Part shown: in pieces, positions 19,861-20,252 of the stretch
Numbering within the stretch: position 1 is the first letter of the stretch
How the letters are laid out: every line of letters begins with the position of its first letter
IMG/VR virus record: IMGVR_UViG_2526164690_000051
Source: a virus
Taxonomy: Duplodnaviria; Heunggongvirae; Uroviricota; Caudoviricetes
Reading direction: 5' to 3' (one strand)
Length of the DNA: 20,594 bases
Position numbers and translations under genes: made by a program
The notes under the pieces: generated by a model
What the model saw: only the letters and a program-made list of their open reading frames with translations
What the model was told of the DNA's origin: nothing
The model's database searches: none

Positions 19861-19929
19861 TTTTAACGTAAATGGATTGTTAAATGTGTTTTGGTTGTGA
19901 TATAACCAAAAAAGACCGGAATACAGAAA

Positions 19930-19951
19930 TTCGAGTAAATTTCGAGTAATT
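19930..19951. repeat. tandem direct repeat TTCGAGTAA(A/T)T x2, candidate Int arm-type sites
   Basis: TTCGAGTAAAT / TTCGAGTAATT between the int stop and the sdsR 3' end. Confidence 0.35.
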
Positions 19952-19991
19952 TCGGGGAGACGTTTGCAACTAATTGATTTTAAATACAATT

Positions 19992-20094
19992 AAAAAAAGA
20001 CCGAATACGATTCCTGTATTCGGTCCAGGGAAATGGCTCTTGGGAGAGAGCCGTGCGCTAAAAGTTGGCATTAATGCAGGCTTAGTTGCCTTGC
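19992..20094 (-). ncRNA. sdsR: SdsR (RyeB) small RNA
   Basis: Reverse complement GCAAGGCAACTAAGCCTGCATTAATGCCAACTTTTAGCGCACGGCTCTCTCCCAAGAGCCATTTCCCTGGACCGAATACAGGAATCGTATTCGGTCTTTTTTT matches my recollection of E. coli SdsR, including its terminator hairpin. Confidence 0.7.
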
Positions 20095-20184
20095 CCTTTA
20101 AGAATAGATGACGACGCCAGGTTTTCCAGTTTGCGTGCAAAATGGTCAATAAAAAGCGTGGTGGTCATCAGCTGAAATGTTAAA

Positions 20185-20225
20185 AACCGCCCGTTCTGGT
20201 GAAAGAACTGAGGCGGTTTTTTTAT
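20185..20225. terminator. bidirectional rho-independent terminator (ryeA 3' end / yebY terminator)
   Basis: AACCGCC ... GGCGGTT stem flanked by T-runs on both strands. Confidence 0.5.
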
Positions 20226-20252
20226 TGGAAATCAAAAGGCTATTTTAGGTAA

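Follow-up and report, generated by a model that had tools for sequence, protein, structure and literature searches.

A prophage junction in the 3' end of sdsR

Positions 19861-20025 of the window (the whole stretch of DNA that was analysed, 20,594 nucleotides) very probably form the junction on the integrase side (the BOP' of lambda) of a lambdoid prophage, inserted by an arm-binding tyrosine integrase of the lambda/HK022 family in the hairpin that terminates the small RNA gene sdsR. Judged by its closest matches, the window is E. coli DNA: positions 243-20594 are 100% identical to four genomes, among them that of the O103 strain RM8385, a single-base deletion in int apart, and the best matches include O26, O111 and O103 strains. 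The features to the right of the integrase gene are the following.

19988-20225, plus strand: RyeA (SraC) body and terminator (Rfam RF00101), with the native 5' end of about 40 nt and the promoter replaced by phage DNA
19992-20091, minus strand: SdsR (RyeB) sRNA gene (Rfam RF00111), with the 3' arm and U-tail of its terminator, 19992-20006, supplied by the phage
20253-20594, minus strand: yebY, the first chromosomal gene past the junction (listed open reading frame, and annotation in relatives)

An earlier note on this DNA, made from the letters alone, had described an SdsR-like sRNA on the strand opposite to int and had placed a prophage junction at its 3' end. Rfam searches bear out the first of these claims, since SdsR_RyeB is found at 19992-20091 on the minus strand with 118 bits (gathering score 38), and its 3' end is separated by 131 nt from the stop of the int frame at 19858-19860. 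Its antisense partner SraC_RyeA is found at 19988-20132 on the plus strand with 179 bits (gathering score 37). The junction itself emerges from the alignment with the K-12 locus (NC_000913, 1920500-1925500) that the same note had proposed. Homology to K-12 starts at about 19991, and from 20007 to 20294, the end of the stretch compared, the window is identical to K-12 without a mismatch; between 19991 and 20006 there are two differences, at 19997 (A, G in K-12) and 20006 (T, C in K-12), and at both positions the four-way alignment described below shows the window to carry the phage allele. The sequence 19861-19990 is missing in K-12 and in 5189 of 5426 complete E. coli genomes, but the phage record PP818812.1 contains it; this distribution marks the stretch as phage DNA, more exactly as the attP arm next to int, which in lambda would be called P'. 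The competing reading, that 19861-19991 is ordinary chromosome and the true junction lies elsewhere, has virtually no chance of being right: we found no point in its support, the stretch is without counterpart in the same K-12 and 5189 genomes, and in the phage record it is contiguous with int and with the other phage arm.

The attachment site is uninterrupted in those 5189 complete genomes and split in the remaining 237, in 228 of which (~4% of the 5426) the integrase of the window adjoins yebY. RM8385 contains two copies of the core 55,178 bp apart, the far one adjoining pphA, and between them lies one lambdoid prophage with an IS66-family insertion, sodC, lom and the effector gene nleG7.

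Several side observations concern these relatives and the rest of the window. Positions 1-242 of the window are without match in the four otherwise identical genomes, and RM8385 has an IS66-family element near the point where its match to the window stops. At the same locus the O26 strain FWSEC0001 carries two lambdoid prophages fused via IS600, a fusion from which the internal att site and one int, the second, are missing. An RalA antitoxin sRNA is found at 18249-18427 (minus strand, Rfam 219 bits), in a region for which the annotation of the O26 genome gives the ralR toxin gene, and the Rac-like early region with RalA also contains recE, recT and kilR. Further phage-borne RNAs, all on the minus strand and within 207-379, 1150-1398 and 3350-3548, are STnc100, three tRNA genes and an isrK / C4 antisense RNA that has its a1b1 target sites.

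Strand exchange within the terminator hairpin

The phage record PP818812.1 encodes an integrase of 98% protein identity, followed by the same sequence as 19861-20017 of the window; past the equivalent of 20017 it diverges to the flank TTTTCGTCAACAAAC, which leads to tail-fibre genes. By this layout the stretch is the phage attP. At the pphA-side end of the FWSEC0001 prophages, K-12 sequence runs to ...GAGACCGAACACGATTCCTGT and is followed by TTTTCGTCAACAAAC, and the join in RM8385 is identical. We therefore had all four partners of the recombination, and aligned the phage attP, the K-12 attB, the window junction and the pphA-side junction. In this alignment attP reads TAAAAAAAGACCGAATACGATTCCTGTTTTCGTC and attB reads TAAAAAGAGACCGAACACGATTCCTGTATTCGGTC, and all four sites share a common core with reciprocal flanks:

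19991-20022, no strand assigned: att core, an imperfect attP/attB homology of about 32 bp (four-way alignment)

At the window junction 19997 and 20006, on the left, have the phage allele and 20018 and 20023, on the right, the bacterial one; the pphA-side junction has the opposite combination at the same four positions. From this reciprocal pattern, read in the aligned sequences, the exchange took place within ACGATTCCTGT, positions 20007-20017, which comprise the 7-nt loop of the SdsR terminator and adjoining stem bases; it is the differences between the E. coli attB and the phage sequence that allow the crossover to be mapped to 11 bp. With the exchange so placed, excision would be expected to give the attP AAAAAAAGACCGAATACGATTCCTGTTTTCGTC and to restore the attB AAAAAGAGACCGAACACGATTCCTGTATTCGGTC. 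The crossover interval overlaps the last 23 nt of SdsR (19992-20014), as at the ryeB hot spot. Thus the proposals that a prophage/chromosome junction is present here and that the 3' end of sdsR is its attachment site both hold, and the comparison with the other prophage end, also suggested in the earlier note, gave the reciprocal pattern at a junction some 55 kb away.

In the terminator scan the SdsR terminator appears at 20026-19998; it has a stem of 11 pairs, a loop of 7 nt and a T-run, and the stem arms GACCGAATAC and GTATTCGGTC are inverted repeats around the loop GATTCCT. The hairpin at the junction has a folding energy of -15.8 kcal/mol, which equals the K-12 value, and its tail is U7 as against UCUUUUU in K-12. 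SdsR in the window scores above the Rfam gathering threshold and has an intact terminator. The attP sequence alone forms no hairpin (-4 kcal/mol, no better than shuffles). Since the exchange lies inside 20007-20017, the phage donates the 3' arm of the SdsR terminator and the U-tail and regenerates the full hairpin with unchanged stability. The terminator copy at 19993-20026 had been called intact; the hairpin is indeed there, yet it is not purely bacterial, because the crossover lies inside it and makes it a hybrid, half phage and half bacterial.

The stem consists of 10-bp inverted arms around a 7-nt spacer, and the 11-bp crossover interval spans that spacer. By analogy with lambda, the arms GACCGAATAC and GTATTCGGTC would be the inverted core-type Int sites around a 7-bp overlap. 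Arms and loop would then correspond to the usual arrangement in which an overlap region is flanked by two core-type sites, with putative cleavage sites.

Integrase and excisionase

The recombination genes adjoin the junction.

18532-18819, plus strand: xis, an excisionase of 95 aa (Pfam Exc PF07825, E 6.5e-14; annotated as excisionase in the O26 genome)
18785-19860, plus strand: gene of a lambda-family tyrosine integrase, frameshifted in the window and 358 aa long where intact in relatives (Pfam and structure matches)

Int matches lambda Int over its full length (PDB 1z1b and 5j0n, E 1.4e-71), is ~41% identical to HK022 Int and scores above the cut-offs of the Pfam families Phage_integrase, Phage_int_M and Arm-DNA-bind_1, the N-terminal arm-DNA-binding domain (PF09003) reaching 28.1 bits against a cut-off of 22. 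The prophage thus has an arm-binding tyrosine recombinase with an adjacent excisionase, and with a lambda Int homologue that contains an arm-binding domain, a lambda-like attP is a reasonable expectation. The copy of int in the window is frameshifted: the A-run at 19615-19619 is A5, and A6 in the O26 genome and the phage record. As a result of this 1-nt deletion the long int open reading frame stops at 19654, Int is cut to 289 aa and the region of the catalytic tyrosine is out of frame. The frameshift could be a real inactivating mutation that locks the prophage in place or a homopolymer sequencing error; owing to it, this copy of the prophage may be unable to excise by itself.

Anatomy of the integrase-proximal arm

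Two features between int and the core are pertinent to the expectation of a lambda-like attP.

19928-19959, plus strand: three direct repeats of about 11 bp, AATTCGAGTAA, ATTTCGAGTAA and TTTCGGGGAG (TRF and conservation)
19967-19979, minus strand: IHF consensus site AATCAATTAGTTG, that is WATCAANNNNTTR (pattern match), between the repeats and the core

The tandem repeats mentioned in the earlier note are real but short: TRF reports an array at 19930-19954 (period 10, 2.4 copies, score 43), and a degenerate third copy reaches 19959. Counted from the middle of the loop at about 20012, the repeats occupy -84 to -53 and the IHF consensus -45 to -33, followed by the core. Two further copies lie in the opposite arm of this phage, TTTCGAG at +135 and TTTCGGG at +156, after an IHF-like site.

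To the right of int we could compare many phages that share the target. IMG/VR was scanned for the core GACCGAAYACGATTCCTGT, which gave at least 120 stretches, and loci fetched earlier were added; together these contain at least 47 distinct left-flank clusters and at least 37 distinct right flanks that share the core. Among the matches listed, every integrase-side arm with enough sequence has an integrase homologue of 48-100% identity at a fixed distance from the core, and 29 non-redundant integrase-proximal arms were compared. Among these listed arms, three direct TTCG-type repeats about 10-11 nt apart occur between -95 and -25 in 25 of 29, and a strict IHF consensus starts 30-39 nt from the core in nine, with none elsewhere in the arms. 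The variable part of the repeats shifts in concert in each lineage of the matches listed (CGAGT, CGGAC, CGAGG, CGGAA, CGTGx, CGGGx), which is the pattern expected of sites that co-evolve with a protein domain. Pairs of the TTTCG(A/G)G type are likewise present in the other arm of other lineages among the matches listed; the lineage-specific part of the repeats shows no clean co-variation between the two arms of the same contig.

In the attP of lambda and HK022 the core C-O-C' is accompanied by the IHF site H' and the arm sites P'1-P'3 beside int and by P1-P2 in the other arm, and the layout in the window is close to the placement of P'3-P'1 and H' in lambda. The likeness comprises a full-length Int homologue with an arm-binding domain and, at the level of sequence patterns, three direct repeats with an IHF consensus beside int and a further two repeats in the opposite arm. 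The repeats at 19928-19959 are therefore probably arm-type Int binding sites analogous to lambda P'1-P'3, and 19967-19979 would bind IHF in the manner of lambda H'. Unlike lambda and HK022, this phage has another core sequence and another target, its core-type sites coincide with the stem of an RNA terminator, and it has an extra core-like element distal to the third repeat. The arm architecture, conserved as it appears in the 29 listed arms with integrases 48-100% identical, supports a lambda-type junction.

A natural variant of the junction is found in one IMG/VR record (L066; 2728369554_000022, ~8470-8575), which lacks 85 bp between the core-like element and the core; the deletion takes away the repeats and the IHF site and leaves 56 nt between the end of int and the core. 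A scan of genome contigs with Int found only two close relatives, one in E. coli and one in Shigella, and in the phage collection the attP arm was present in only two records. PP818812.1 is named 'Actinobacillus phage vB_Apl-pPE4' (43270-47508); its attP arm is 96% identical in DNA to the E. coli prophage of the window, and its stated host looks doubtful.

The promoter of RyeA and the separation of pphA

The earlier note had also argued that the 5' end and promoter of RyeA would fall within or near phage DNA. The K-12 ryeA annotation, which starts 38 nt upstream of the SdsR 3' end, maps to 19954-20225 of the window, and only the part from about 19991 is homologous. In K-12 the -10 box of RyeA was defined by mutation, through its replacement with CTCGAG (PMC6610125), and from the mutagenic primers in that paper we deduced that the mutated hexamer is TATGGT at K-12 1923053-1923058. 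Since both the RyeA start and the -10 box lie to the left of the core, they are left behind on integration: the native promoter, together with the initial ~40 nt of RyeA, is retained at the junction beside pphA and faces into the phage. The window thus has the RNA body (179 bits) and lacks the native promoter with its -10 TATGGT that defines RyeA in K-12. With this promoter moved to the far junction, we infer that RyeA in the lysogen must start in phage DNA, and the alignment, the annotated start and the mutated -10 box together agree with what had been claimed.

The best candidate for a phage-borne promoter is the following element.

19896-19906, plus strand: TGTGATATAAC, an extended -10-like element (TGaTATAAC, 19898-19906) directed toward ryeA, candidate phage-borne RyeA promoter

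TGaTATAAC ends 92 nt before the core, as compared with 52 nt for the K-12 -10 box, and so lies 40 nt farther upstream. Among the matches listed, 20 of the 29 arms have a TGnTAYRRY motif with its end 84-96 nt before the core, and when all occurrences within 400 nt of the core are counted in the same set, 22 of 25 fall at 80-99 nt. In some lineages the -10-like element is inside the last codons of int (...YVMV*), and in others it is just beyond them. The passage on SraC in Froehlich et al. (PMC3333887) states that the RNA of Shigella and Salmonella exceeds that of E. coli by ~35 nt, with a potential -10 box ~35 bp farther upstream and an earlier expression peak; one Shigella flexneri genome has the same arm as the window, and it may not be the strain of that study. 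On the strength of the longer SraC with its upstream -10 box and of the arm in Shigella flexneri, RyeA would start near 19913-19915, most likely from TGaTATAAC, and the transcript would be ~40 nt longer than that of K-12. A start from the core-proximal TTTGCA-16-TACAAT (19963-19990), which would make the transcript ~40 nt shorter than in K-12, is unlikely: this site points into ryeA and has 9 of 12 matches in the sigma-70 scan, but the scan found two such sites with one expected by chance, the site overlaps the IHF site and shows no conservation in other arm lineages among the matches listed, and the published Shigella SraC, as that passage of PMC3333887 describes it, is longer and not shorter. 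The upstream element TGaTATAAC thus stays our preferred origin of RyeA.

A side observation concerns the family model. The Rfam SraC_RyeA consensus starts AauUAAAAAaAGaCCG, which matches the phage-derived 19988-20003 of the window, AATTAAAAAAAGACCG, and not K-12, AGATAAAAAGAGACCG, so the model appears to include 5' sequence of the lysogen type.

The prophage also separates pphA from sdsR. In the uninterrupted locus pphA is expressed by read-through from the sdsR promoter, as an sdsR-pphA dicistron, and transcription of ryeA interferes (Choi et al., PMC6610125). The 55-kb insertion would abolish this read-through transcription, and in the lysogen the read-through of SdsR would run antisense into int.

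The core-like element upstream of the repeats

A near-copy of the terminator half was reported in the earlier note ahead of the intact copy, and it can be described as follows.

19908-19926, no strand assigned: near-copy of the left half of the core, that is of an SdsR terminator arm, AAAAAAGACCGGAATACAG; phage-borne, conserved, and present in the phage attP record

Within the 20.6 kb there are exactly two occurrences of AAAAAGACCG(G)AATAC, one at 19909-19924 and one at 19994-20008, and 100 shuffles contain no match at all, which confirms the near-copy. We considered and rejected it as an att duplication that marks the prophage boundary: the phage record contains the intervening 65 bp up to the core, and K-12 does not. 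The suggestion that the near-copy and the repeats are the att core or arm region therefore holds as far as the arm is concerned, since they lie in the phage-borne, integrase-proximal arm of attP, and fails for the crossover core and for a duplication made by integration; the genuine second att copy is that beside pphA, ~55 kb away.

Among the matches listed, 15 of 29 arms have a core-like CCG(G)A(A)TAY whose start lies 70-90 nt upstream of the core, and the 400-nt arms contain it at no other place; the position of the near-copy is fixed where the neighbouring spacers vary, which argues against a neutral relic. It also stays core-like in lineages whose arm repeats differ, and this fits an invariant recogniser, either the core-binding domain of Int or the SdsR/RyeA hairpin RNA. 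In several lineages the near-copy and the first repeat form an inverted repeat of the CCGAAT-N6-ATTCGG type. Our best guess, held with low confidence, is that the near-copy is a candidate protein-binding site, similar to those of the Int core domain, which overlaps the predicted +1 of the phage promoter.

Two other readings of the near-copy were weighed. The inverted repeat could act on the minus strand, where near-copy and first repeat would form a hairpin followed by a U-run, as a back-up intrinsic terminator. This is rather unlikely, as is the corresponding role of keeping SdsR read-through, or read-through of the late operon in the free phage, out of antisense int. The A-run, the core-like element and the CCGAAT-N6-ATTCGG repeat are conserved around a variable spacer; a 131-nt minus-strand fold pairs the reverse complement of the near-copy with the 5' arm and loop of the SdsR terminator, followed by U6, at a z of -2.76 that one of 200 shuffles equalled; and read-through of the sdsR terminator is documented as substantial (PMC6610125). 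However, the local hairpin of the near-copy is weak (-6 kcal/mol, z ~-1), as it is in most other lineages, the terminator scan found the SdsR terminator alone, and the long-range pairing needs the displacement of a hairpin that has already formed. Very unlikely, in our judgement, is that the near-copy is a functionless remnant left by an att duplication in the past or by imprecise excision. It does resemble the A-run plus left half-site of the core, and the 85-bp deletion in L066 joins near-copy to core, so the two copies can act as plain direct repeats; but its position is fixed in lineages with integrases ~58-72% identical in which the adjacent spacer columns are randomised. We thus retain the candidate binding site as the preferred, low-confidence reading.

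A possible fossil integrase end in the RyeA promoter

Integrase genes of a second class (~50% identity) target the same core. Their product ends ...KKYLDARGAEYVMV*, encoded by AAAAAATACCTGGAC-N17-TGTTATGGTTTAG, 88 nt from the core, and the K-12 RyeA promoter region reads AAAAAACGCTGGAC-N17-TGTTATGGTTGAC (L001, 2520-2566). The K-12 promoter region (AAAAAA..CTGGAC-N17-TGTTATGGTT) is colinear with the last ~45 nt of the second-class int (KKYLD...VMV*), and the score of this alignment was reached by none of 5000 shuffles. Flanks on the pphA side in other hosts grade between these two sequences, at 52 to 81 nt from the core. By this comparison, the 'native' RyeA promoter looks like a fossil integrase 3' end. 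K-12 yebW is a DUF1482 gene, and the neighbouring lambdoid prophage of FWSEC0001 has a DUF1482 gene between an exonuclease gene and dicB; pphA, for its part, resembles the lambda phosphatase. It is a serious though tentative possibility that RyeA is a phage-supplied transcript by origin as well as today, that the empty site is a fossil integrase-side junction, and that the antisense regulator of SdsR was exapted from the 3' end of an integrase gene.

Relation to known systems and significance

Insertion at the ryeA/ryeB hot spot was described in Salmonella enterica by Balbontin et al. (2008, J Bacteriol 190:4075), as cited in PMC7380047, PMC3333887 and PMC3603311, and RyeB is in use as a target label for prophages (PMC10111431). 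The prophage of the window itself occurs in many RefSeq genomes. The section on PhiW104 in PMC7380047 reports that lysogeny of Salmonella lowers ryeA expression and raises that of ryeB, so the idea that lysogeny alters the RyeA/SdsR balance has an experiment of earlier date behind it. As the passages on the Salmonella hot spot and PhiW104 present them, the target there is likewise the last ~23 bp of ryeB/sdsR, internal to ryeA, and the 5' part of ryeA is likewise replaced. The present case differs in its host, E. coli, in the nleG7 gene of the RM8385 prophage, and in the two positions at which attB departs from the phage and which permit the 11-bp mapping. The site, the phenomenon and the effect on RyeA were thus already known from Salmonella, and in view of the 2008 description our work is a confirmation and extension rather than a discovery. 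It adds the 11-bp crossover mapping in E. coli, the lambda-like arm anatomy, the conserved promoter-like and core-like elements and a possible origin of the RyeA promoter from an integrase fossil. Two of these points may be new: that many phage lineages have a promoter-like element whose distance from the core is fixed, and that the K-12 RyeA promoter region looks like a fossil integrase 3' end.

The use of tRNA and tmRNA 3' ends as integration targets, in which the phage restores the 3' end, offers a second parallel (Williams 2002, in the form cited in PMC3603311). In both situations the dyad symmetry of an RNA stem-loop is used and a phage-borne replacement 3' end keeps the gene intact. Here the target is the terminator of an Hfq-dependent sRNA in a locus that is transcribed on both strands, so that the antisense gene loses its promoter as well when the phage inserts.

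The junction is an example of how a phage can enter a locus transcribed on two strands: the terminator of SdsR is restored and the promoter of its antisense partner RyeA is replaced, and the same insertion would cut pphA off from sdsR read-through. SdsR is a sigma-S-dependent regulator that acts as a toxin too. With ~4% of complete E. coli genomes lysogenic in this way, including O26, O111 and O103 matches, the regulation of SdsR and RyeA and the expression of pphA may differ between the lysogens and K-12-type strains.
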